This document shows, piece by piece, positions 4,004 to 61,194 of a stretch of DNA of 64,000 nucleotides (its first letter is position 1; each line of letters begins with the position of its first letter). The DNA lies in the UHGV virus genome UHGV-0010228. One strand, 5' to 3'. The notes under the pieces are model-generated. The model did no database searches and was not told the origin of the DNA. It saw only the letters and a program-made list of their open reading frames with translations. The position numbers and the translations under genes are program-made. Origin of the DNA: a virus.

Positions 4004-7000
4004 ATGCTATTCGAAAATTATGAAGATTGGAGAGTATATCCACCACAACCGAGGATATATTTCCCTAAAAATTCTTCAAAAAATAAAACTGCAGGATATG
4101 GATCAGCGTTATTTTTATTAACCCCCAAAACTACATCATCTTTCGAATTTATGAAAGATAAAAATGTAGCACTCAGAATGTCTTTATATAAATACTATAT
4201 GATAGAGACGATGTATAAAGAAAAAATTGGTCGAAAAAATGTCATATTAAATATGACTAGACAGATGGAAGCTTTATATAATGAAAATAATGTTGAAAAA
4301 GATACTACAATATCTTATATTCCTAGACCTCAGAAAAAAGCTAGATTAAAATCTGGTAATAATATAATTGTAGATTTATCAATGTGGATGGAATTATATC
4401 TTAAATATACAGTAACTATTCAGAATCCTAAGGAAAAGTGTAGAATATTTATAGATTTATTAGATAAATTGCTTAATGATAGTAATTATAATAATTATGA
4501 AAAATTAGTATGCATAGATATAAATTCATGGACTAATAGAGCGGCAGATTGTGTTATGATGAATCGCGATCTACTCAATAACCCTCTATCAATTTTAATT
4601 TATGCTATGGTTAAATATCCGGATTTATTAAATGGAAAACTTAAAAACTTTAGAATATATCTCGTAAATAGATCTAGTAAGCAGATTTTTCTCTTTAATA
4701 CAAAAGATATTATTAAAGATAATTATAACAAATTTAAGAGTAAGATCAAATTATTCAAGGGTATATCTATATCATCTTCTGAAACTCTTGAGGGCGATAC
4801 CAATATATCAGAAGGTGAAGCCAAGGCTATCGCTATCAATAATTATAAAAATAAAGTATTAAAGTCAATGAAGAGTAATCTCTTAGGTAACAGTAAGAAT
4901 ACTGAAATTCGAGAAATTACTGACGATGATGAATTGATTGATAGTAATGATGATTATGATGAGATCTTCGATGTTACTAAAGAAATAGAAGAAGAATCTG
5001 ATGAAGTAAAACCAACCGATGAAGATTCTAATCTTTTTGATGAAATGGGAGCAGAGTTAGATCTTGATGCTGAAGCTTTGGCTGAATTAGATAATATGAT
5101 TGGTGATATTGATGATGTATCAACTGATGATATATTGAATACTCCAGTAGATGAAGTTGCAGATGATCTTGCTGAACGTGTTAAAAATAATGTATTCATT
5201 GCGGAATTTAAACCTAAGAGGACAAGTGAGCAAGAAGAGCGAAATCGTGAAATGATGGATATTCAGGCAATAGCTCTTAATCAGGAAAATATTGATAATG
5301 CAAAAACCAAGATAATTGATACAACAGATTTTTCAGACTATATCAATTCTTCCAATGTAAATATTCTTAAATCAAAATATGTTAATTTTGATAAAGACTA
5401 TGTTGAAAAGAAAATGGAAGGTGACATAGACAATGCTGTTGCTTGCTTATCTGGAGCGACAGATAAGATATTCATCACCAATAAAGAAGTTATTGATTCT
5501 TCAGACTCTTTAAATCTTAAGAGGACTTTAAAATATTCCCTTGAAGATGAAAAAGGTAATAAAATGACAATAACTTTTGATGTACCTATTATAATTGATA
5601 ACTGCTATATCTATGTAAATGGTAGTAAGAAGTTGATAGGTCATCAGTTTATATTAAAACCTCTAGTAAAAACTGGTCCTGATACTGTTCAGTTAGTAAC
5701 TTCATATAATAAAGTATTTATCACTAGAGATGGCGTTGTAGATTATATATCTTCTAGCATTATAACTTATATGGAGAAGAATCCAGAGAAGTTTAAGTGT
5801 GTTAGGGGTAATTCATCAATTAAGAATAAGAAATATAACACAGCATTAGATTTTACAATGTATGCTAAGTTATTTACTAGATTTACAATTGGTGATGAAG
5901 AATTTATTACCGGCATTGAAGAATTTTATGATAGATACAATAAAAAATATCCAACTAAAAAACTTAAGTTGGATAAAAAGAAAATTGCTGAGAAGTATCC
6001 AATTTCATTTAATAAAAAGACTGGTGAAATAAGATATATGAAATCAACTGAAAGTTTTTCGGATATCTTATTATCAATCATTGATGAAGAAGATAAGAAA
6101 GCAATTAGTAGAATTAAAAAGAAACCTAGACTGGTTTATGTTAGGGCTAAATTAATGGGCCAAATATTCCCAATGGCTCTTCTTTTAATGTATCATGAAG
6201 GATTCGCGTCTATAATGAAACGTGCAGATATTGCTTATCAATTCACAGATAAGAAGTCATATAATAAAATGGATAAAATGAGATATGATTTCTTAGAACT
6301 ATCGGATGGATTAGTCGTCTGGGAACGTAGAAATATGTTAACTTCATTACTCATGAATGGCTTAAAGCGATTAGATTTTACACCTTATACAATAGAAGAG
6401 TTAGAATCTAAGGATACTTATAGGTCATTATTAGTCGACTTATATAATGGGGATAATTCTATTTCATATAAAATAGATCAGTTCTATGATTTTACAATAG
6501 ATTCTATTACTAAGGAGATATTAGAGGATATGAATTATCCTACAAATCTTCCTGATTTATTAATATTAGCAGTTAAGATGTTATGTGATAGCGCATATGC
6601 TCTTGAAAATAATATGAATAATATGAGAATTAGAAGTAATGAGGTAATTCCAGCGATTATTCATAAAGAAATAGCAGATGCATATAACTTATATAGAAAG
6701 ACATCTTATAAGAAGAAACCAGTTAATGTATCTATTAAACCAAATATCATAATTGATAAATTACTATCTGCTGATACCAATCTCATCGAGGAATTTAGTA
6801 CTATAAATCCTGTATTAGAGATAGAAAAAGCTCGTTGTGTAACATTTAAAGGCTATAGAGGTATACAGTTAGATAGAGCGATAACTCTTCCTAGACGTGG
6901 ATATGATCCATCAATGTTAGGAATTATGGGAATTTCAACATCATCAGATGCTAACTGTGGTGTAAATAGACAGATGACATTAGAACCTGCGATTACATCT

Positions 7001-7159
7001 ACAAGAGGATACTTGGAGGTAAATGGTGTTGAAAATGTAAATTCTTTAACAGATGCTAATTTACTATCGCCAGCAGAATTATTAACACCACTCGGTGTTA
7101 TACATGATGACCCCGATAGAACTGCGATCAAAAAAAGCTTGTTAGATGTCGCAGTATAA
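4004..7159 (+). CDS. Multisubunit RNA polymerase beta subunit, N-terminal part (exon 1). The ORF reads through into a group I intron and stops at 7157-7159.
   Basis: RBS 'aaggagg'. C-terminal region 'SDANCGVNRQMTLEP' resembles the conserved bacterial beta motif 'DSNRALMGANMQRQAVPL'. 'YIYVNGSKKLIGHQFILKP' is reminiscent of 'FIINGTERVIVSQL'. Contiguous with the intron and exon 2. Confidence 0.55.
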   Translation: MLFENYEDWRVYPPQPRIYFPKNSSKNKTAGYGSALFLLTPKTTSSFEFMKDKNVALRMSLYKYYMIETMYKEKIGRKNVILNMTRQMEALYNENNVEKDTTISYIPRPQKKARLKSGNNIIVDLSMWMELYLKYTVTIQNPKEKCRIFIDLLDKLLNDSNYNNYEKLVCIDINSWTNRAADCVMMNRDLLNNPLSILIYAMVKYPDLLNGKLKNFRIYLVNRSSKQIFLFNTKDIIKDNYNKFKSKIKLFKGISISSSETLEGDTNISEGEAKAIAINNYKNKVLKSMKSNLLGNSKNTEIREITDDDELIDSNDDYDEIFDVTKEIEEESDEVKPTDEDSNLFDEMGAELDLDAEALAELDNMIGDIDDVSTDDILNTPVDEVADDLAERVKNNVFIAEFKPKRTSEQEERNREMMDIQAIALNQENIDNAKTKIIDTTDFSDYINSSNVNILKSKYVNFDKDYVEKKMEGDIDNAVACLSGATDKIFITNKEVIDSSDSLNLKRTLKYSLEDEKGNKMTITFDVPIIIDNCYIYVNGSKKLIGHQFILKPLVKTGPDTVQLVTSYNKVFITRDGVVDYISSSIITYMEKNPEKFKCVRGNSSIKNKKYNTALDFTMYAKLFTRFTIGDEEFITGIEEFYDRYNKKYPTKKLKLDKKKIAEKYPISFNKKTGEIRYMKSTESFSDILLSIIDEEDKKAISRIKKKPRLVYVRAKLMGQIFPMALLLMYHEGFASIMKRADIAYQFTDKKSYNKMDKMRYDFLELSDGLVVWERRNMLTSLLMNGLKRLDFTPYTIEELESKDTYRSLLVDLYNGDNSISYKIDQFYDFTIDSITKEILEDMNYPTNLPDLLILAVKMLCDSAYALENNMNNMRIRSNEVIPAIIHKEIADAYNLYRKTSYKKKPVNVSIKPNIIIDKLLSADTNLIEEFSTINPVLEIEKARCVTFKGYRGIQLDRAITLPRRGYDPSMLGIMGISTSSDANCGVNRQMTLEPAITSTRGYLEVNGVENVNSLTDANLLSPAELLTPLGVIHDDPDRTAIKKSLLDVAV

Positions 7160-7542: not shown

Positions 7543-8724
7543 TCTTACAAGCAAACGAAATACATGATTCCAGTTGCTGATTCGTCACCAGTGTTAATAG
7601 GTAATAAAGTTGAATCTATTTTACCATATTTAATTTCAAATGAATTTGTTGTTGATGCTAAGCAAGATGGTGAAGTTGTTGAGATTAAAGACGATTATTG
7701 TGTCGTAAAATATAAAGATGGAACTTATTATTCTATAGATATTGGAAGTAGAATTAAGAAAAATGCAAGTGCAGGTTTCTTTATAGACAATAAATTAACT
7801 TGCAATTTAAAAGTTGGAGATAAATTCAAAAAGGGTGATATTTTAGCTTACAGTGATAAAGCATTTACTCCTAATAGAGATGGTAAAGGCGCATCTATGA
7901 ATTTAGGAGTATTAACAAAAATTGCAATTGTAAGTAATTGGGATGTATATGAGGATAGTGCACCTATCACTAAAAAATTAGCTGAACGGTTAGCTACAGA
8001 TATGGTTTGGGAAAAAGCAGTATCATTAAATCCTGGTACTTACATTGAAAAGATGGTTAAGATTGGTGATAAAATAAAGACTGGTGAATCACTGATGTTA
8101 TTTGAAGAAGTTGATGATACGGATTTCGCTGCTGTTCTTAAACAGATTCGTGAAGAAAATCAAGAAGAACTTATTGAAAGCACAAAATCAACTATTACTT
8201 CGAAATACACAGGAGAAATTGCTGATATTAAAATATATTCAACTGTGCCAGTTGAAGAGATGGATGAATCTTTAGCTAAAATAGTGACCGATTATTATAA
8301 AAAGGTCGAAAAAAGAAATAATATTCTTGAAAAATATAAGAATCCTGGAGATTGTAATTATTATAAATCTGGACAGATTATATCTGAGGAATCTAAAGTT
8401 ATGAAACCATCTAAATCTGGTAAGATTAAAGGTGAGTATGCCGAAAATTCAGTAGTTATTGTATTCTATGTTAAGTATAGAGATGTAGCTGCTAAGGGTG
8501 ATAAAGTATGTGCACAGTTCGCACTTAAGGGTGTTTGCTCACATGTTATAGAAGAAGGATTAGAGCCATATTCTGAATATAGACCAGATGAAGAAATATC
8601 AGCTCTTATTGCACCTCTTGCAGTATCTGCAAGAAAAGTTCCGTCAGTATTCAAGATGATGTTTGGTAATAAATTGCTTATAGAATTAAAACGACATTTG
8701 AAAGATATGTACTTAAATAACTAA
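7543..8724 (+). CDS. Multisubunit RNA polymerase beta subunit, C-terminal part (exon 2)
   Basis: 'IPVADSSPVLIGNKVE' resembles 'VPLMQPEAPFVGTGME'. 'GDKVCAQFALKGVCSHVIEEGLEPYSE...IAPLAVSARK' matches the universally conserved beta motif 'GDKMAGRHGNKGVISKI..EDMPY...LNPLGVPSRMN'. There is no ATG or RBS at the 5' end of the ORF (the track starts at TTG), consistent with an exon. Confidence 0.75.
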   Translation, partial: SYKQTKYMIPVADSSPVLIGNKVESILPYLISNEFVVDAKQDGEVVEIKDDYCVVKYKDGTYYSIDIGSRIKKNASAGFFIDNKLTCNLKVGDKFKKGDILAYSDKAFTPNRDGKGASMNLGVLTKIAIVSNWDVYEDSAPITKKLAERLATDMVWEKAVSLNPGTYIEKMVKIGDKIKTGESLMLFEEVDDTDFAAVLKQIREENQEELIESTKSTITSKYTGEIADIKIYSTVPVEEMDESLAKIVTDYYKKVEKRNNILEKYKNPGDCNYYKSGQIISEESKVMKPSKSGKIKGEYAENSVVIVFYVKYRDVAAKGDKVCAQFALKGVCSHVIEEGLEPYSEYRPDEEISALIAPLAVSARKVPSVFKMMFGNKLLIELKRHLKDMYLNN

Positions 8725-15981: not shown

Positions 15982-16100
15982 AGTATTTTCCTCCTTATTA
16001 TACTATATGAGTTGTATTTATTCACTTTAATAATATACTAATAAAAAAAAAAGAAATTACGGTATATTCTATATATAGAATATACCGTAAATAATATAAT
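15982..16100 (-). promoter_or_regulatory. Repeated module, copy 1: 36-bp perfect-palindrome terminator (16057-16092) + T10 + 'TATATTATTAAAGTG' promoter-like motif + conserved leader with TGTATAAT-like box and RBS
   Basis: The minus-strand read gives a hairpin then 'tttctttttttttt' then 'tattagtatattattaaagtg'. Near-identical copies occur at 33912-34030 and 17112-17190. Confidence 0.6.
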
Positions 16101-16967: not shown

Positions 16968-17111
16968 TTATTCCTCCTTTTCATCATATCCCATAAGTTC
17001 TTTATAAAGGCGTAATGCTTCTTCAGAGAAGCCACCCTGTGAAGATTTTTTGTTTTCTTCACGTTCTTTCACCTCTATTATCTCTCTCACTTCTCTAATT
17101 TTTATTCTCAT
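16968..17111 (-). CDS. Small charged protein (47 aa), paralog of 16796-16963
   Basis: MRIKIREVREIIEVKEREENKKSSQGGFSEEALRLYKELMGYDEKEE. RBS 'aaggagg'. Same N-terminal MRI(K/R)..EVRE as its paralog. Confidence 0.5.
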   Translation of the reverse strand: MRIKIREVREIIEVKEREENKKSSQGGFSEEALRLYKELMGYDEKEE

Positions 17112-17190
17112 AGTATTTCCTCCTTTATTATACACTATGATTATAACTTCACTTTAATAATATATGAATATACAATCCAGTAATTACGGT
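17112..17190 (-). promoter_or_regulatory. Repeated promoter/leader module, copy 3 (drives the small-protein operon 17111 to 16105)
   Basis: The minus-strand read is 'accgtaattactggattgtatattcatatattattaaagtgaagttataatcatagtgtataataaaggagg'. It shares 'accgtaatt', 'tatattattaaagtg' and 'catagtgtataat' with copies 1 and 2. Confidence 0.55.
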
Positions 17191-30937: not shown

Positions 30938-32782
30938 ATGCCTCTAGGAAATTATACAATAAATGGTCAATATAATTCAGAAAAAATTATAAATGGTATC
31001 TTATTTGATAAGATCATATATAAAATATTAAATTGGATGCCTAATGAAGTTACATGGGAAAAGGTTGGATTAGACGAATCTAATCCTTTTGATTTAAAAG
31101 CCTCTAGAAAAATATCTAATGCTTCAGAATTAAAATCTTATGCGGTTTTTAATTATATTAATGGACCAGAAAATGATATATCAAATGCAGTTGTTGGTAG
31201 TCCTTTAAATGTTATATATACACATAAGATCACTACTAGTGATAATAAAATGACACCTTATGAGTTTGCATTTTATAAAAATCATATATATTATAGAAAT
31301 CCAAATTCTACAAGTAATAAGTGGTTAGATTGTGATAATATTGATAGATTTGGCAATGAACGAATTATTATATCCAGAGAACAAATTAGACCAACTAATC
31401 CATCTGGTAATATGATATGGCTATCATCAAATGGAAAGCTTTATATTTATATAAATGGAAAATGGTATGATCCAACTATAACAGATATGATGGATAGAAC
31501 CATCTACGATAAAAACAATCGAGGTGAAAATCCATTTGAATATTTCCATGATAAAATGCAAGATGTATTAAATGAATACAATAAATTCTTAAAGCATAAA
31601 AATAATCTTTTTAAATTAATTCATTTATTAGAAACAGAAAGAGCTTATTATGAAACATTAGTTTCTCAAAAAGATATTCAGAATGCTCTTGATACTAGTT
31701 ATTTCAATAATTATCTAGATAAGATTCAGGAATATATTCAATATAAACTAGATCTTTATTACAATAATGAATTATATGGAAATTCGATATGTTCTTGGGT
31801 TGAAGTTCCACAGTATGTATTAGGAGATAATCACACATATAATGATATTAATGATATTTATTATAGTGAAAATATTTTAGGTATAAAAATAGGCAGTACG
31901 TTATCACTATATAATACATCAAATGATTCATATGATACATATAAGACAATAAGTTCTAGCGCTGCATTTATTGATTACGTGGTAGATAATAATTATTTAT
32001 ATTATGCAACTCTATCGAATAGTAGAGCAAATCAATATAGTTTAACGTTATATATTGAAGAACCGACAAATGAATCTGCGACTAAATTTGTAAAGATATC
32101 TGCACAAGATTGGAATTTTGATAGTCCGATTAAAACGTTCAAAATATCATATCTCGATGGTTATATTTTTGAATATGGTACATTGGAGAATTCCAAATAT
32201 TTTTTACATGTAAATACAATTTGTGATTCGGACCTTGATGTATTTATTGTATCACCTAATAGCTCAACTGCAAAATATTTCATATCTGATATGAGACGTA
32301 ATTTATCTCCAGATGCGGAGTCATCAGAGAATTATCAAATTTATTTAGGAAATATAGATGAAGATAATATTAAATCAGTCAATATGCTTGTATTTACAAC
32401 ATTAGATGAAATATTATTATTGAATAATGAAACATTAATAAGTAAAAATTATAGTGTTGGATTATCTAATGGGGATATGTATATACTTAGTATTGAATAT
32501 CCATATGTTAGTAATACTGTAGATACCGACATTAAACGTATGTGGGAAGTTGTGAATGAAATTGAAATTGATAATAAATATCTTAATCAAGTAGAAGTAT
32601 ATGCTCATAATACTAAGAATTCGTCACTCAATCTATATTGGAGAAATTTAAAATTAAACGAATTAGGAATTAAATCTGTACAAAAAGTATGTGCTGGTAA
32701 ATATAAATACTTAGCATTAATCACTGATTTAGAAGATCAAACTAAATTAATAATAAGTGATATGATATACTATGATATATAA
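30938..32782 (+). CDS. Tail-fibre-like protein, paralog 2 (614 aa)
   Basis: RBS 'aaggagg'. 'RPTNPSGNMIWLSSNGKLYIYINGKWYDP...IYDKNNRGENPFEYFHDKM' parallels paralog 1, with a long divergent C-terminus. Confidence 0.5.
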   Translation: MPLGNYTINGQYNSEKIINGILFDKIIYKILNWMPNEVTWEKVGLDESNPFDLKASRKISNASELKSYAVFNYINGPENDISNAVVGSPLNVIYTHKITTSDNKMTPYEFAFYKNHIYYRNPNSTSNKWLDCDNIDRFGNERIIISREQIRPTNPSGNMIWLSSNGKLYIYINGKWYDPTITDMMDRTIYDKNNRGENPFEYFHDKMQDVLNEYNKFLKHKNNLFKLIHLLETERAYYETLVSQKDIQNALDTSYFNNYLDKIQEYIQYKLDLYYNNELYGNSICSWVEVPQYVLGDNHTYNDINDIYYSENILGIKIGSTLSLYNTSNDSYDTYKTISSSAAFIDYVVDNNYLYYATLSNSRANQYSLTLYIEEPTNESATKFVKISAQDWNFDSPIKTFKISYLDGYIFEYGTLENSKYFLHVNTICDSDLDVFIVSPNSSTAKYFISDMRRNLSPDAESSENYQIYLGNIDEDNIKSVNMLVFTTLDEILLLNNETLISKNYSVGLSNGDMYILSIEYPYVSNTVDTDIKRMWEVVNEIEIDNKYLNQVEVYAHNTKNSSLNLYWRNLKLNELGIKSVQKVCAGKYKYLALITDLEDQTKLIISDMIYYDI

Positions 32783-32806
32783 GAGAAAGGGGGGCTAATA
32801 AAAAAT

Positions 32807-33169
32807 ATGGAAATGCAATTTTTACAGGGTATTATGGATACTCAAATATATGCATTAGCAGTTGCATTATATTTACTCGGAATCGGAATTAGAAAGATTA
32901 GTACTGTAAAGAATAATCATATTCCAGTTATACTTGGTATTGTAGGTATAGTATTTGTAGCATTGCATATATTTGCAACTCAGAGTTTTGATACACCACA
33001 GCAGATAGCTGCGGCAATATTTGCCGCATTTGTTCAGGGTATATTGTGCGCAGCAGCAGCAGTATATGCTGATCAGATTTTTAAGCAGTATAAAAAATTA
33101 AAATCTGTAGTAACTACTAATGAGCCTGAAGAAGAAACTTCAGATCGAGTAGATGAGGATTATAACTAA
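32807..33169 (+). CDS. Putative class-I holin (3 TM segments, charged C-terminus)
   Basis: TM segments 'IYALAVALYLLGIGI', 'IPVILGIVGIVFVALHIF' and 'IAAAIFAAFVQGILCAAAAVYA', then an acidic tail. Lies downstream of the fibre-like genes. Confidence 0.55.
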   Translation: MEMQFLQGIMDTQIYALAVALYLLGIGIRKISTVKNNHIPVILGIVGIVFVALHIFATQSFDTPQQIAAAIFAAFVQGILCAAAAVYADQIFKQYKKLKSVVTTNEPEEETSDRVDEDYN

Positions 33170-33174
33170 AAAAA

Positions 33175-33236
33175 GAAACCTCCGAAGAGGTTTCATAAAT
33201 AATCAGACTAGATTTATACTAGTCTGATTATTTTTA
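33175..33236. terminator. Back-to-back terminators
   Basis: Hairpin 'aatcagactagatttatactagtctgatt' plus 'attttt' serves the plus-strand holin gene. Hairpin 'gaaacctccgaagaggtttc', read on the minus strand and followed by T7, serves the minus-strand gene 33234-33911. Confidence 0.65.
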
Positions 33237-33911
33237 CTTGAAAAGACCTTCTGATATCAGAAGGTCTTTTCTACACCATTCGTCAAGTGTGACGAGACAA
33301 TCATTTTCATCACGCATAGCACCGAGCGCAACTGATCTCATAAGTTCTTTCTCATGAGAGACGAACTTTGAGTATGCTTCACCAAAGTTTGGTGAGGTCA
33401 CCTCAGGAAGAAATGCGAGTTTAGGATTATTAAGAACCTCCTTACACCTGTAATCAAGATACACGTCCATCAACTTGCACTCTTCTGGGCTGAAAATTTC
33501 AGCATTGCTCTTTCTGAGCTTTAATACTAAATTGTTAAATCTTTCATCCCAATTCGCAATAAAAGATTTAATTTTTTCCTTACCATATTTAGTGAGGATC
33601 TTACCAGCTTTATAATCTGGCAAGAAAGTTTTTACAATATCATCGATGAATATGGTAATGAGTTCGATAACACCACCTTTTTCATGATTAAAGATGAATG
33701 TAAAATCAAACCCCTGACCATTATCATCATGAGCCTGGATTCCGTGAATAGCGTTTGCGGATTTACAAATCATTGCTCTAAATATCGGGTCCGAAATGAA
33801 TTTCACAACTTTAGCTGATTCCTCACTTAATTCGAGCTTTGATTCGGAATCGAAAATCAATCCAATATTAGCAATAGTTATAATTTCTTCGTTAGTTATA
33901 TTAATTCTCAT
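33234..33911 (-). CDS. Hypothetical protein, GC-richer (moron-like)
   Basis: 3' half is about 42% GC. Preceded by copy 2 of the terminator/promoter/leader module. 225 aa. Confidence 0.6.
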   Translation of the reverse strand: MRINITNEEIITIANIGLIFDSESKLELSEESAKVVKFISDPIFRAMICKSANAIHGIQAHDDNGQGFDFTFIFNHEKGGVIELITIFIDDIVKTFLPDYKAGKILTKYGKEKIKSFIANWDERFNNLVLKLRKSNAEIFSPEECKLMDVYLDYRCKEVLNNPKLAFLPEVTSPNFGEAYSKFVSHEKELMRSVALGAMRDENDCLVTLDEWCRKDLLISEGLFK

Positions 33912-34030
33912 AGTATATATCTCCTTTCTTTATATACAATTTTTTATTGTATATACTATGACTATAATTTATTCTCATCTTAATAATATACAAATAAAAA
34001 AAAAAGAAATTACGGTATTTAATTATTATT
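33912..34030 (-). promoter_or_regulatory. Repeated module, copy 2
   Basis: The minus-strand read is 'accgtaatttcttttttttttatttgtatattattaag...tatagtcatagtatatacaat...aaggagatatatactATG'. It shares at least 40 nt with copy 1. Confidence 0.55.
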
Positions 34031-34104
34031 TTTCTATGAGCCTTGTGATAGATGAGCAACAAATATTATAATTATAAATCACATTACGAGGAGGCAAAGA
34101 GATT

Positions 34105-34593
34105 ATGGAGTCAAGTCTTCTTTTAGAAGGTTTCCAAATTGTGATGGCTTTCTTATCACCAATAATTGTTGCTGTGATTGGTTATAAGGCTACTCGATTA
34201 AATGAAGAAACCAAAAAAATAAACGAGGTGCAACAGGAGCTTAATAAAACTAAAGAACAGCAGGTTGCTGAAAGATTTGAAGAGATCGAAGAAAATATTG
34301 AAGAGTTGGCATCTGGTTTAACTGCCATTAAATCTAAATGTGCAGATATAGAAGATGATATCGATATCATAACTCATCAAGTAGAGTTTCAGTCTCAACT
34401 CCTTAGAGTTTACAATTCTTCAAGTAATAATGTTATAAATCTCTGCGATGCATTAACATCTTCGCTTGTCAAATATTATCAATCACAACCTGAAATATAT
34501 GAAGCTATAAAAGAATATGAAAATTCTAAAAAAGCTATCACGACAGATATTTTAAGTTTGATTCAATCATTTGGTAGTGAAAGGAGGCCATGA
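34105..34593 (+). CDS. Membrane-anchored coiled-coil protein
   Basis: RBS 'gaggagg'. N-terminal TM segment 'IVMAFLSPIIVAVIGY', then heptad-rich sequence. Confidence 0.5.
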   Translation: MESSLLLEGFQIVMAFLSPIIVAVIGYKATRLNEETKKINEVQQELNKTKEQQVAERFEEIEENIEELASGLTAIKSKCADIEDDIDIITHQVEFQSQLLRVYNSSSNNVINLCDALTSSLVKYYQSQPEIYEAIKEYENSKKAITTDILSLIQSFGSERRP

Positions 34594-34928
34594 GATTTAT
34601 GGCTATGACTAATGAAGCTTTTCAGAGCATGATAGATGAATATGGAGATAGAATATTCTATATAAATCTTAATAATGAATATAAGATGTATATAGGATAC
34701 GAATCTTCACATATTATTTCTGTAAAGGATTTAAAATTGAAGAATGTTGGTGGGGTTGATATGTTTGGGGTTCCAAATGTACCACCTGATGCTAAACTTC
34801 GCAATCTGTCTAAGAAAAACAATAACGAACCAGTATATTATACATGGCATTGTACTGAATATATTGAGACGATTGGAGTTATGGAAGAGAAATATAACGA
34901 CTATAGACCAGATCCGATTGCAATGTAA
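34590..34928 (+). CDS. Hypothetical protein
   Basis: Start overlaps the upstream stop (ATGA). Terminator at 34947-34978 ('aagaagagttatttaataactcttctt' plus T6). Confidence 0.5.
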   Translation: MRFMAMTNEAFQSMIDEYGDRIFYINLNNEYKMYIGYESSHIISVKDLKLKNVGGVDMFGVPNVPPDAKLRNLSKKNNNEPVYYTWHCTEYIETIGVMEEKYNDYRPDPIAM

Positions 34929-35130
34929 GAGAGTTTATAATTAATTAAGAAGAGTTATTTAATAACTCTTCTTTTTTATTAACTCATTTTATCTTTATAT
35001 ATTATTTTTATGCAGGACAGGAATAATCGATTATAAAAATATATAATAATAAACTTTTATATTAATTTAGAACCGTATTAGATCATGTCTTGAAATAAAT
35101 TAATGTAAGAAAAAGAAAGGGAGAATTAAA

Positions 35131-35574
35131 ATGACAGACATCTCAAAATATGTTAAAGCGAAAAAAGAAGCTGGCAGAATTGCTGGTATAAAGGTAAAGC
35201 AGAATAATGCGGAACTTCAGTGCGAGTGCACACATACTGAAAAAGGAGGTCCAGCATTAGAATTTAACAAAAAGACACATGTTTGTGAATGTAAAATATG
35301 TGGTAAAGCTGTAAATCTTAATCCGATCTCTATTGAAGATCAGAATAAGGCAGTTACAGTAATTGACGACATGTGTGATCTGATCAAAATGCGTATAAAT
35401 CCTAACAATAAGAAAGAGATGGATTTGTATAAAAAGATCAAGAAGTTACAGTTAAGAGTTACTACATCATTAAGAGATTATTACCAGGCAGCACGTAGCA
35501 ATAATAAGAAGAATGGTAATAAGAAGAAGAATAACAACAATCACTCTGATTTCGGAAGAACAGTAACAAAATAG
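35131..35574 (+). CDS. Small basic Cys-rich (CxC...CxC...CxxC) protein
   Basis: 'CECTHTEKGG...HVCECKICGK', then a K/N-rich tail. RBS 'aagggag'. Confidence 0.5.
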   Translation: MTDISKYVKAKKEAGRIAGIKVKQNNAELQCECTHTEKGGPALEFNKKTHVCECKICGKAVNLNPISIEDQNKAVTVIDDMCDLIKMRINPNNKKEMDLYKKIKKLQLRVTTSLRDYYQAARSNNKKNGNKKKNNNNHSDFGRTVTK

Positions 35575-35656
35575 AGTGAGTCAAATAATCTATTAACATA
35601 ATATTATTGGGATGAATATTATTATTCATCCCTTTATTTTTTTATAGGAGGTAATC

Positions 35657-36397
35657 ATGAATAAGGAAGATATCAAAGATTATATAAATGATAGCGAAGT
35701 TAGAAAATATATAAATTTTGAAGCTGAATATTCTAATGGAATTATAGATAAAACTTTAATTGAAATTGAAGCTGTAACAACAGATCACCCAGAAATTGAT
35801 AGTAATAATAAATATTATAGAAATCTGATAGATACTCTTACTAGTAGTAAAGATATTTTAAATCATGCCAGAGATATTGCTTTAAAAATATTAGATAAAT
35901 GTGATGAATATACTATTGGTGAATTCTATATGCTGGTAAATGGCATTCGATCTTTATTATATGGAACTCCAATATATGCATTATCTGGAAATGATGATGA
36001 ATGGGATGATTGCACAAAAGAAATAGATAAATTAACTAAGACTATCGAATTTTATAGTCCAAAGTTCAGTAAAGTTGAAGAATATACTTCAGAAATTAAT
36101 ATTGATTCTATTGAAGTCAATAAACGGTATTCTAACATATATAGAATAAATAAAGATAATTCATTAGCATTTAGACTAGATGCAATTACTATGGAAAATG
36201 AACGGGAAGATTTTGATCCTACTGATGGTATTAGATTTATTGAGTTTCCATGGTCATATAAAGATTCAATTATAATTCCTGATAGTGTAGAAAATCCACA
36301 TAAATATATTAATGAAATGGATTTTTATTTTGATGGTACACCTATCCCTAAAAAAGAATTAGAAAGTTTAATGGAAAATAATAAGAAAGAGGAATAA
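35657..36397 (+). CDS. Hypothetical protein
   Basis: RBS 'taggagg'. Terminator at 36383-36424 overlaps the stop codon. Confidence 0.55.
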   Translation: MNKEDIKDYINDSEVRKYINFEAEYSNGIIDKTLIEIEAVTTDHPEIDSNNKYYRNLIDTLTSSKDILNHARDIALKILDKCDEYTIGEFYMLVNGIRSLLYGTPIYALSGNDDEWDDCTKEIDKLTKTIEFYSPKFSKVEEYTSEINIDSIEVNKRYSNIYRINKDNSLAFRLDAITMENEREDFDPTDGIRFIEFPWSYKDSIIIPDSVENPHKYINEMDFYFDGTPIPKKELESLMENNKKEE

Positions 36398-36650
36398 AAA
36401 CTCCTCTTTCTTATTATTTTTGTATTTATCATAAGACAATATATTATTAATATGTAAGTATACTAACACTTATATTAAAATTATATTGATTTATAGAAAG
36501 GAGATAATACTATGAGTATAGCAAATCAGACAAGTGGAGGAGCAAATTATCAGAATTCAAGTAGTGCAAATGATTTTAAATCTATAAAATTGAATCAAAC
36601 AAGTGCAATACATAATGAAACTATGAATTTCTCAGTTAAGGAGGAATTAA

Positions 36651-39071
36651 ATGGGAAAGAAAACTGCTAAAGAAGTAAATCTTGTAAGTAAAGACAATAT
36701 ATCATTTAAAGATGATAAGTTTGTATACTTACAAGATGAATTAGACGCGATTAGAGGCGCAATGCGAATGTACATCCCTAGAGGAGAAACTGATGGAGCA
36801 TTGCATTTATTCAAGGAAATTTTCAATAATGCATTAGATGAGTGTAATAATGAAAATTCTCCGGCTAATAAGATTATTGTAGAATTTCGTGAAAGTGAGT
36901 GTAAATTCTCAGTATCAGATGAAGGAAGAGGAATTCCTACAGATATATTAGTAGATGCAGTTATGAAGAAACATGTATCTACTAAATTAGTAGACTTATC
37001 CGAATCTCGTAATAAGAGACAGACTGGTATACATGGTGTAGGTATGACAGTAACCGCAGCATTGACTGATTATATGTCACTTACAACTTATAGAGAAGAT
37101 CATTGTAAAACTATAGAACTTATAGATGGTGTAATGAAAGAATATCCTATAAAGAAATTAAAGAAACCTAGACATGGATTAGAAGTTACTTTAGTACCAT
37201 CTGAGAAATATCTAGGTGAGATTAATCTTACTAACGATATTGTAGAGGATTTTATTAGACATATGGCATATATAGTACCAGATGGAATAATAATTGAATT
37301 CTATAAAGAAGGTCCTGATGGTAATATGGTATTTACAAAATATCATAATTTAGGATTGTCTGAAAATCTTCATTACTTATCATCATCATTAGAATTTCCA
37401 CCTATAGAATTAAAAATCATTACTGAAAATTTTGATTTATTTACAGCGTTTGCATACGATAAATCAACTGATGATATGATCTACGAATCGTATGCGAATT
37501 ATGTAATAACAACTGAAGGTGGAACCCATGAGCAGTTAGTAATTAGATCTCTATGTGAATATTTCACCAGAGAAGCAAAGAAAGCAGATGCTACATCTAA
37601 ATATGAAGTAGCATATGATGATTGTAAAAAAGGATTGTGTTTTGTAGTTAATATAGAGCATGTAAGACCTGAATTAGAAGGACAGCATAAATCTAAAATA
37701 TCAAATAAAGATATATTAGCAGATGGAAAGAAACCATTATTGGATGCGCTTCATACGTATTTTAGTAACAACCCTACTCAGTTGAAGAAAATAATTACTT
37801 ATCTTAGACAGATATCTAAAATAAGACAGGAAGCACATAAGATAAAAGGAGTTTCTAATAAGAAACCATCTACGTTCTTAGATGATGCTGAAATAAAAAT
37901 GTTTAAGAATGTGTCTGATAGAAAGTATAATGGATATAAAGAATTATATATAGCCGAAGGAGATTCTGCATTATCCGGTATAGATAGTGCAAGAAATCCA
38001 AAATATCAGGCAATATTTGGAGTTCAAGGTGTTATAGACAATACTCACGACTTAACATTAACTCAATTATTGCAGAAGAGAACTTTTAAGAATTTAGTTA
38101 AAATTCTTGGATGTGGTATTGGTAAAGATTTTGATATAACTAAATTGAGATTTAATAAGATCATAATAGCATGTGATAGTGATGTTGATGGATCTAATAT
38201 TACCTCTTTGATACTATGCTTCTTCTATATCTTTATGCCAGAACTAATTACACAGAATAAGGTATTTAGAGCAATGCCACCATTATATCTATTAGATAAG
38301 AAATCTCTTAAGAAGTTTTATAATGGCAGAGAATGGTTGTATGATAAACAGGAATATTATGATTTACTTAATACTATCATAGCTAATAATGCAACTATTG
38401 CTTTACCTAATAAATCTTCTAAAAAGAATGAAGTAAATATATTATCTAAGAAAGAAAAGAAAGAGTGGCTTAGTCTCAATTCTGAATATAATCTTGAATT
38501 ACTTAATCTTAGTAAGAAAGCAACATGTGATGAAACTATTCTAGAATATGTCTGCTGGTATTTACTAGAAGCCGATGGTAATGTGAAATTATTTAAGAAG
38601 CTCATTGAGAAAGAATTTAATGAAATGGAATTCGACCCATCAAATCAGGTTCTATTAGGTTCTTGGAATGGAAATTATTTCTCATTAATATGTGATAAGT
38701 TATTCTTAAAGAGTGCAAAGAGATTCATGAACTTATTATCACAGAATATTTCACTATTCGTATATTGTGGTGATAAGGACGAAAATGATATAGAGAAAAT
38801 GACTATAGGTCAATTCTTTAATCTCATGCACAGAAATTATAATGTTAAGATCGAGCAGAGGTTTAAGGGAATTGGAGAATCAGATGCAGATTTATTATTT
38901 GTAACTACAACCAATCCTAAACTTAGAACTCTCATAAAATTTGATCTTAATAGTATAGAAGCAACAAATGAGATGTTTGAATTGCTTCATGGTAAGTCCG
39001 AAAATATGAGAGAGCAGCGTAGGCAGTTACTTGAAAATGCTGAAATATCATATGCGGATATAGACAACTAA
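36651..39071 (+). CDS. Type II DNA topoisomerase, ATPase/TOPRIM large subunit (GyrB-like / T4 gp39+gp60-like)
   Basis: GHKL N-box 'FKEIFNNALDE'. G2 box 'GIHGVGMTV'. TOPRIM 'YIAEGDSALSG' and 'IIIACDSDVDGSNI'. RBS 'aaggagg'. Confidence 0.9.
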   Translation: MGKKTAKEVNLVSKDNISFKDDKFVYLQDELDAIRGAMRMYIPRGETDGALHLFKEIFNNALDECNNENSPANKIIVEFRESECKFSVSDEGRGIPTDILVDAVMKKHVSTKLVDLSESRNKRQTGIHGVGMTVTAALTDYMSLTTYREDHCKTIELIDGVMKEYPIKKLKKPRHGLEVTLVPSEKYLGEINLTNDIVEDFIRHMAYIVPDGIIIEFYKEGPDGNMVFTKYHNLGLSENLHYLSSSLEFPPIELKIITENFDLFTAFAYDKSTDDMIYESYANYVITTEGGTHEQLVIRSLCEYFTREAKKADATSKYEVAYDDCKKGLCFVVNIEHVRPELEGQHKSKISNKDILADGKKPLLDALHTYFSNNPTQLKKIITYLRQISKIRQEAHKIKGVSNKKPSTFLDDAEIKMFKNVSDRKYNGYKELYIAEGDSALSGIDSARNPKYQAIFGVQGVIDNTHDLTLTQLLQKRTFKNLVKILGCGIGKDFDITKLRFNKIIIACDSDVDGSNITSLILCFFYIFMPELITQNKVFRAMPPLYLLDKKSLKKFYNGREWLYDKQEYYDLLNTIIANNATIALPNKSSKKNEVNILSKKEKKEWLSLNSEYNLELLNLSKKATCDETILEYVCWYLLEADGNVKLFKKLIEKEFNEMEFDPSNQVLLGSWNGNYFSLICDKLFLKSAKRFMNLLSQNISLFVYCGDKDENDIEKMTIGQFFNLMHRNYNVKIEQRFKGIGESDADLLFVTTTNPKLRTLIKFDLNSIEATNEMFELLHGKSENMREQRRQLLENAEISYADIDN

Positions 39072-39081
39072 AAGGAGATAT

Positions 39082-61029: not shown

Positions 61030-61194
61030 TGTATAATTACCTCCTTTTAGGATTTTATTCATATTAAACACTTATTATCATAAATTTATTGTATTTGTTT
61101 ATATTGGTGTTAATTAAATTCCTGCAACTTCGATAATTATAAATAAAAAATATGAAATATATATTATTAAATTGAACTGAGAAGGAGGATTACA

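Follow-up and report, generated by a model that had tools for sequence, protein, structure and literature searches.

Morons, in the definition of Hendrix and colleagues, are known from lambdoid and other tailed phages, and phages also have polymorphic accessory or counter-defence loci, at which deeply diverged alleles sit in near-identical backbones. T4-like phages have a composite element, the promoter-early stem-loop (PeSL), that is found flanking ORFans and through which modules are shuffled (Arbiol et al. 2010, PMC2839356; Comeau et al. 2014, PMC4122927). The early promoters of phage AR9 follow the form AAATATATATTAT-(6N)-G+1 and are read by a virion RNA polymerase reported to be sensitive to single deviations in the promoter (Lavysh et al. 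2017, PMC5312081), and the motif TATATTAT has been predicted upstream of 29 genes of the Staphylococcus aureus jumbo phage MarsHill (bioRxiv 10.1101/2020.12.14.422802). Here we analysed a 64,000-nucleotide (nt) stretch of the virus genome UHGV-0010228 (the window), and in particular its minus-strand open reading frame (ORF) 33234-33911, which encodes a protein of 225 amino acids (aa) and occupies the slot between a holin gene and a gene for a 162-aa protein. A sequence-only reading of the window had described this gene as a moron-like cassette (cassette 2), sharing its upstream module with a cassette 1 located near 16 kb. We find instead that the variable part of the locus is the ORF body, which changes by allelic replacement and is invisible as such from a single sequence.

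One gene body is replaced between near-identical genomes

We compared the slot in the nine related contigs that reach it (L001-L005, L010 and L013-L015), whose flanks are about 89-100% identical to the window. All nine carry a homologue between the holin gene and the 162-aa gene, in five alleles other than that of the window, and an empty site was found in none of them; in L015, a second contig of the ~96% backbone, the gene is cut by the contig end. The clearest comparison is with L001-L003, which are 99.6-100% identical to the window over the flanks that they cover, L001 doing so for 10 kb on each side (99.77% and 99.78%). Between the window and L001, BLASTN identity breaks off at 33869, just behind codon 14, and is regained at 33234, the position of the stop codon. 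Across this 20.7-kb comparison, 500-nt bins outside the ORF body hold at most 7 differences each (~45 in total), versus ~355 differences inside it. Both states are supported by independent assemblies, since L012 matches the window at the 3' junction and the other allele recurs in three contigs. With 99.8% identity over ~20 kb, a single 0.63-kb ORF body that differs and mapped breakpoints, the locus offers an unusually clean natural experiment.

The allele of the window (A) is also that of L012, a contig matching the window at 100%, 3' junction included, and is only 38-43% identical to all others. Four of the remaining alleles encode 213 aa: B (L001-L003; flanks 99.8%), which is 42% identical to A; B' (L010, plus six similar places; flanks 99.3-99.8%), a mosaic with 86% identity to B; E (L014; flanks ~96%), with 84% identity to B; and C (L004 and L005; flanks ~90%), with 69%. 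The last, D (L013; flanks ~89%), comprises 203 aa as called and is 62% identical to B. Divergence is highest at residues ~15-80 (15-25% identity) and milder in the C-terminal half (45-55%). The 3' boundary of replacement always falls at the stop codon or at a terminator hairpin, while the 5' boundary lies either at codon 14/15 (window versus L001) or higher, in the leader and intergenic region, as in L010, which is there like L014.

Synonymous divergence (dS) and the ratio of nonsynonymous to synonymous divergence (dN/dS) were used to place these alleles in time. Between A and B, dS is 2.3, which is saturated, with dN/dS of 0.25; the corresponding values are 1.57 and 0.15 for B versus C, and 0.40 and 0.22 for B versus B', a mosaic pair with blocks that are 100% identical. 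Three flanking genes give a dS of 0.38-0.47 between the window and L004, the contig of allele C. Ratios of ~0.15-0.25 show that the alleles encode a functional protein. These values make the alleles old, functional and under purifying selection, and recombination appears to have carried them into near-clonal backbones.

Divergence so sharply limited to one ORF could also be imagined to arise in situ, either through hypermutation by a diversity-generating retroelement or through decay of a pseudogene under relaxed selection. L013 lends itself to such an explanation: in this contig (10880-11010), a 13-nt deletion takes away the TATATTAT box, a stop stands at codon 19, and the 203-aa ORF begins at an internal ATG, which could mean that early expression was lost, that decay has begun or that the assembly is in error here. 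However, saturation at synonymous sites stands against a difference of 0.2% in the flanks, and the dN/dS values are those of a constrained protein. Frames are also intact in the four 213-aa alleles of the six, allele A has 225 aa, and in L013 the N-terminal codons are split off from a 203-aa frame. Changes involve all bases as well as insertions and deletions (indels), and the B versus B' blocks of complete identity are those of a mosaic. We consider hypermutation or decay in situ to be effectively refuted by these comparisons. As a retroelement target the ORF was likewise rejected, the differences spanning the whole 634-nt body, with all bases affected, indels present and dS saturated; TBLASTN with all six alleles found no paralogous repeat of the ORF in the window, no search having been aimed at a reverse transcriptase. 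The 613-aa marker protein of the L013 backbone (P0006) is carried by three contigs.

The unit resembles a moron, but its slot is filled in every relative that reaches it

The gene is convergent with the holin gene and forms a monocistronic unit, and both the 225-aa ORF and its plus-strand holin neighbour (32807-33169; Hol44 family, PF16079, E 3e-22; phrog_1129) were as the sequence-only reading had them. Its composition is atypical: GC content at third codon positions (GC3) is 0.336 versus 0.199 +/- 0.043 (z 3.2), the highest among 55 genes, and whole-gene GC is 0.357 versus a mean of 0.295 in the other 54 genes (z 1.7). Alleles other than A have a GC of 0.39-0.435. The 3' half, which had been put at about 42% GC, measures 38.3%, and 43.5% is reached only in a 200-nt segment starting at 33311.

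A classic moron, that is, a gene with promoter and terminator recently inserted between the holin and the replication block by a vehicle shared with cassette 1, would account for this autonomous, opposite-strand unit and its deviating GC3, for the 38-nt upstream block that it has in common with cassette 1, and for the retention of only half of the cassette-1 hairpin, which resembles an old junction. Yet a homologue lies at the same place and in the same orientation in every contig that reaches the slot, down to ~89% flank identity, and any insertion therefore predates the whole sampled clade. Moreover, L016, which ends 60 nt past the holin gene and so short of the slot, still has both hairpins and the A7/T7 tract of the minus-strand terminator, and the core of the supposed vehicle is a genome-wide early promoter. 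We therefore found no insertion polymorphism behind the claim of a moron-like insertion, and regard a recent insertion of this kind as decidedly improbable. The sequence-only reading had named, as evidence against itself, a gene found at the same locus in all related phages and with uniform composition: the gene is indeed at the same locus in all, whereas its composition is not uniform with the genome.

Like morons, the unit has its own promoter and terminator (both in silico here), an atypical base composition, an orientation opposite to that of the two functional blocks between which it lies, and probably an accessory cargo. Unlike morons, its slot is occupied in every relative sampled and variation takes the form of allele replacement, with no presence/absence, and its predicted expression is early in lytic infection, not from a prophage. 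It shows three of the four hallmarks of a moron, but not the defining one, presence/absence among relatives.

The minus-strand transcript is predicted to end in three tandem hairpins (free energy, dG, -52.8 kcal/mol, z -11; Table 1). The last of them, GAAACCTCTTCGGAGGTTTC followed by T7, is the terminator that had been assigned to the gene, and it was recovered in our analysis. The middle one, with its plus-strand T5, is likely the terminator of the holin gene. The first encodes most of the C-terminal extension (RKDLLISEGLFK) that is missing from the 213-aa alleles; it looks like a terminator brought in with allele A, which suggests that the allele, 3' end included, came from another context.

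The gene is preceded by a predicted AR9-type early promoter

Upstream of the ORF, the minus strand reads ...taccgtaatttcttttttttttatttgtatattattaag..., catagtatatacaat, AAGGAG, 9 nt and ATG, exactly as quoted by the sequence-only reading. The element TATATTAT-N6-G occurs 21 times in the window, versus 6.7 +/- 2.6 expected from first-order Markov simulations of its base composition. Most of these matches (17/21) are intergenic, and 16 of the 17 are followed, in the same orientation, by a ribosome-binding site and a start codon; among the intergenic copies, the one at 61174 precedes the DNA polymerase gene and the one at 36454 the topoisomerase II operon. The consensus in the window is A-TATATTAT-Taa..TG-A. 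Where AR9 has an extended A/T-rich consensus upstream of the box (AAATA-), the copy at 33976 has a T-rich stretch; the base before the box is A at 13 of the 17 sites and G in cassettes 1 and 2. At four other sites, the boxes are intact in relatives that are ~89% and ~96% identical. Several of the 17 intergenic copies come directly after hairpin-plus-T-run terminators.

On sequence criteria, the promoter of ORF 33234-33911 fits the AR9 early class, and its activity is predicted accordingly as early. As in AR9/PBS1-like and MarsHill-like phages, there is a TATATTAT box, a 6-nt spacer and a G at the predicted start, the upstream sequence is broadly A/T-rich, and many intergenic copies precede replication genes and small genes of no known role; a phage-coded multisubunit RNA polymerase and leaders tens of nt long are further points in common. 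Unlike in those phages, cassettes 1 and 2 have a G before the box and belong to a sub-class with an added ACCGTAATT 26 nt upstream, and the window phage is itself distant from them (RNA polymerase beta ~30% identical). Taken together, the 17 copies provide a first, predicted, early-transcription map of an uncultivated jumbo phage and extend the AR9-type early-promoter motif to an uncultivated lineage.

A sigma-70 promoter within the module was considered and rejected: a scan for such promoters stayed at background (19 found versus 16.8 in shuffled sequence), and several copies of the box lie too near the ribosome-binding site, as would befit a core element beside the start site. For the palindrome in the predicted leader, a weak hairpin, an operator and a chance product of AT-rich sequence are all candidate readings. 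L004 (~40-65) has a leader palindrome of different sequence that is still palindromic (TATATAATATT-T-AATATTATATA), and the palindrome is deleted in L010 and L014.

The upstream module is shared with two other loci

The sequence-only reading had drawn attention to an upstream module common to cassettes 1 and 2, and this stands: a 38-nt block agrees at 37/38 positions, occurs exactly twice in the window, and gave no match in any of 100 shuffles. In cassette 2 the block holds a T10 run (33996-34005) and the 3' arm, without the 5' arm, of the cassette-1 terminator hairpin. In cassette 1, ACCGTAA forms the 3' arm of a perfect 15-bp hairpin (16090-16057, dG -18.6 kcal/mol) that closes the upstream gene, so that the composite of stem-loop and promoter is complete there, whereas cassette 2 keeps only the 3' arm and the T-run. 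A third promoter, at 17150, belongs to the same sub-class. The element ACCGTAATT has only three copies in the 64 kb (16055-16063, 17182-17190 and 34008-34016, all on the minus strand), each starting 26 nt upstream of a box; it may serve a regulator, act as an upstream promoter element or simply reflect common descent. All three modules also share a CATAGTATAATAA-like leader box and ACTATGAGAA start regions, and all three precede GC-richer ORFs (GC 0.40 in cassette 1 and 0.34-0.40 in the small ORFs after 17150). Because L013 retains more of the cassette-1 hairpin arm (TAGAATATACCGTAATT), and the leaders of L004 and L013 are nearer to cassette 1 than is the window's own leader, the modules of cassettes 1 and 2 appear to be paralogous over ~90 nt.

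The further proposal of a shared vehicle carrying different cargo holds in part. The unit is autonomous, its module is paralogous to that of cassette 1, its composition is atypical, and the cargo proteins of the two cassettes are unrelated, as had been said (BLASTP E 0.2). The core of the vehicle, however, belongs to the phage's own early-promoter class; since there are about 17 intergenic copies, those before the DNA polymerase and topoisomerase II genes included, the vehicle is first of all a member of that class.

We posited that the composite might act as a PeSL does in the strict sense: the terminator/promoter/leader element marked by ACCGTAATT would be a recombination substrate that seeded GC-rich ORFans at 15.4-17.2 kb and 33.2-34.0 kb and still mediates their exchange. 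Several observations are in keeping with this, namely the common register of ACCGTAATT, leader box and start regions ahead of GC-richer ORFs, the longer hairpin arm of L013, and the exchanged patch of L010, which reaches 5' into the leader and intergenic region and there matches L014-type sequence; PeSLs themselves are a described precedent (PMC2839356). Against it, there are only three copies, the cassette-2 copy is without the 5' hairpin arm, the clearest event (window versus L001) crosses over within the ORF, cassette 1 does not vary among 10 contigs, and neither circles nor empty sites were seen. We therefore treat strict PeSL-like shuffling as a tentative possibility.

The resemblance to PeSLs extends to the joining, complete in cassette 1, of a terminator stem-loop with a strong early promoter, repeated before ORFans, to the provision of each gene with its own promoter and terminator, and to the link with genes that are replaced or variable between near-identical phages. 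The locus differs from them in that the promoter is of a phage-RNA-polymerase type and not of the sigma-70 type, in that the extended module has three copies only in 64 kb and has lost the 5' stem arm at 33.2-34.0 kb, and in that the best-resolved breakpoint lies inside the ORF, with no evidence of mini-circles or empty sites.

Early ORFs of very small size (41-71 aa) cluster between 16100 and 17200 on the minus strand; every unit there ends in a terminator, and the first two units have their own early promoter. Two of these small ORFs are tandem paralogues, starting with MRIKIREVRE and MRIRFKEVRE. L007 and L008 are without ~100 nt relative to 16980-17081 of the window, consistent with recombination between tandem paralogues.

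The protein is a clade-restricted ORFan

No segment of the 225-aa protein is strongly hydrophobic (hydropathy over 19 residues peaks at 1.45), and neither sequence nor profile searches gave a Pfam, PHROG or Protein Data Bank (PDB) match beyond noise. No match to known anti-defence or defence proteins was found in Pfam and PHROGs, PADLOC and NCBIfam not having been run. A word-indexed search of 5.8 billion proteins returned the protein itself and two 213-aa relatives and nothing else, and a profile search of 1.84 billion cluster representatives returned only 2 clusters, both already known. No relatives were found in IMG/VR, in JGI metagenomes or in GTDB genomes, nor by TBLASTN in the INPHARED phage collection, and an exact look-up of P0001 found it not on record. 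Two AlphaFold (AF2) runs gave a predicted local distance difference test (pLDDT) score of 50 and 48, and no usable model. By these searches, the protein is classed as a clade-restricted ORFan and represents a new protein family.

Its position tail-to-tail with the holin gene raises the question of a lysis-associated protein, such as an antiholin, a lysis regulator or an endolysin partner, the more so as the ten proteins scanned around the holin contain no endolysin domain. The gene is, however, convergent to the Hol44 holin gene with three hairpins between them, and has an early-type promoter outside the holin operon; its product is without a strongly hydrophobic segment and matches no family, and so gives no sign of a muramidase, amidase or peptidase. 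We give a lysis role only a very slight chance.

A proposed role in host interaction

The explanation that we favour, and consider fairly probable, is that ORF 33234-33911 is a stand-alone accessory early gene whose body is swapped, as old alleles, by recombination, and whose predicted role lies in host interaction. The virion RNA polymerase would transcribe the gene immediately after infection, and co-infecting relatives would exchange alleles through homologous recombination, for which the promoter, the leader and the first 14 codons would form one anchor and the terminator hairpin behind the stop codon the second. The module upstream would be a paralogous copy of the terminator-plus-early-promoter-plus-leader of cassette 1, behaving like the PeSL cassettes of T4-like phages. 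The product, a probably soluble protein of 26 kDa whose C-terminal half is more conserved than its variable N-terminal half, would act on a variable host component, with counter-defence or host takeover as its likely roles, and this interaction would keep old alleles circulating. Such a role would explain early expression, ORFan status and the presence of deep allelic lineages in one population.

The locus resembles, by general knowledge of such systems, the polymorphic counter-defence loci of phages: it has predicted early expression, encodes an ORFan, confines divergence to one gene, and holds old alleles that appear to be under purifying selection and moved by recombination. It differs from them in the want of homology to any known anti-defence or defence protein in Pfam and PHROGs.

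Several points weigh against this explanation. The host-interaction step is its weakest; the proposed function derives solely from expression class, ORFan status and the pattern of polymorphism, with no homology or structure behind it. Assignment to the promoter class relies on the motif and on a parallel with AR9, and the base just before the box in cassettes 1 and 2 is G, not the usual A. The 5' breakpoint between the window and L001 lies inside the ORF and outside the regulatory module, so the module was not required as a crossover site there; cassette 1 is identical in 10 contigs, so the shared module alone is not the cause of variability. Finally, the loss of the box and the early stop in L013 mean that the gene may be dispensable or differently regulated.

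A bolder version would give AR9-like jumbo phages their own equivalent of the PeSL: a semi-mobile terminator/promoter/leader module, marked by ACCGTAATT, would carry GC-rich ORFans and provide homology arms, and the cargo here would be a new counter-defence or takeover family whose old alleles are kept within a single phage population by frequency-dependent selection. We regard this as rather unlikely in its full form.

At its plainest, the locus is a hypervariable, predicted early accessory gene of a phage whose genome is a mosaic, an instance of fairly ordinary mosaicism that is unusually clear here, and current views of phage mosaicism are not overturned by it. It nonetheless yields a clade-restricted family of predicted early proteins that is a candidate host-interaction or counter-defence factor of gut jumbo phages with Firmicutes-type hosts, and it points to composite terminator/promoter modules as possible organisers of gene exchange beyond T4-like phages.

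Table 1 Features of the locus and of the predicted early-promoter class, with positions in the window
Feature	Position	Strand	Remarks
Early-promoter core TATATTAT-taagat-G	33976..33990	-	box 33990-33983, 6 nt, G 33976; AR9-type consensus
Predicted 5' leader, 65 nt	33912..33976	-	from motif register, predicted start G 33976
Leader palindrome TATATACAAT-aaaaa-ATTGTATATA	33931..33955	-	dG -7.5 kcal/mol, z -2.3
Shine-Dalgarno AAGGAG	33926-33921	-	9-nt spacer to ATG at 33911
ORF, allele A, 225 aa	33234..33911	-	acidic, pI 5.3, 25.7 kDa
First 14 codons (MRINITNEEIITIA)	33869..33911	-	identical in window and L001-L003; putative 5' recombination anchor
Replaced ORF body, codon 15 to stop	33235..33868	-	not alignable as DNA with the allele in 99.8%-flank genomes
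14-bp hairpin, allele A only	33271-33240	-	inside last codons of ORF
15-bp hairpin directly after stop codon	33233-33197	.	T5 on plus strand; in all relatives including L016
Hairpin GAAACCTCTTCGGAGGTTTC (8-bp stem) + T7, predicted intrinsic terminator	33194-33168	-	hairpin and T7 33194-33175; T-tract overlaps holin stop codon 33167-33169
38-nt block TACCGTAATTTCT10ATTWGTATATTATTAA	33980..34017	-	37/38 match to 16027-16064(-)
ACCGTAATT element	34008..34016	-	starts 26 nt upstream of TATATTAT box
Cassette-1 counterpart	16023..16090	-	15-bp terminator hairpin, T-run, early promoter TATATTAT-taaagt-G
Third promoter, same sub-class	17150..17190	-	ACCGTAATT at same register, similar leader, before small GC-richer ORFs
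Intergenic predicted +1, minus strand	2434, 3919, 16023, 16519, 17150, 19669, 24236, 24638, 33976, 59047, 63352	-	TATATTAT-N6-G
Intergenic predicted +1, plus strand	8808, 10375, 11827, 35012, 36454, 61174	+	TATATTAT-N6-G

Genome and neighbouring genes

The window encodes an RNA polymerase beta subunit of the phage multisubunit type at 4004-7159 (phrog_3148, E 7e-79); the gene at 7564-8724 has a weak Rpb2_6 match in relatives, and either gene may belong to the virion or to the non-virion polymerase set. A GroEL-like chaperonin, topoisomerase II subunits and a DNA polymerase are also encoded. Judged by the polymerase beta subunit, the cultured phages nearest to the window are Listeria phage LPJP1 and the MarsHill-like jumbo phages of Staphylococcus, and Yersinia phage phiR1-37 is also among the matches, with identities across all of these of only ~25-32%. 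In the protein database, the cluster of the 225-aa protein (allele A) is carried by a 256-kb contig; the related contigs are metagenome assemblies, several of them from Hadza human-gut samples. Searched as DNA, 31000-37000 had no match in the INPHARED phage collection. Because of these polymerase-subunit relatives, the recorded 256-kb contig and the lack of a DNA match in the collection, we assign the window to an uncultivated AR9/PBS1-like jumbo phage of the gut. Relatives further off were sought through the 162-aa neighbour, which returned only proteins 92-98% identical, and Rfam gave no match over the whole window.

Upstream of the holin gene, 30938-32782(+) encodes a 614-aa protein that is 40% identical to the product of L016 804-2591, while the adjacent holin is 96% identical. 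At the level of DNA, alignment with L016 is limited to ~870 nt at the start of the gene (to 31803) and to 60 nt at its end. It is a second mosaic gene, and its product is possibly a host-recognition or structural protein; an IMG/VR scan with it gave no match.

Downstream of the predicted early promoter at 35012, the gene 35131-35574(+) has a GC3 of 0.324, second among genes of at least 100 aa, which makes it a further outlier in composition, and encodes CxC and CxxC cysteine motifs. L014 (16101-16382) and L013 (16107-16388) carry an extra 93-aa gene, with a faint DUF4406 match, between the two topoisomerase II subunit genes. It is absent from the window, which has an empty site at 39072-39081, and the insert comes with its own ribosome-binding site and without the early-promoter module. 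Unlike the 33234-33911 locus, the 93-aa gene is a true presence/absence polymorphism.

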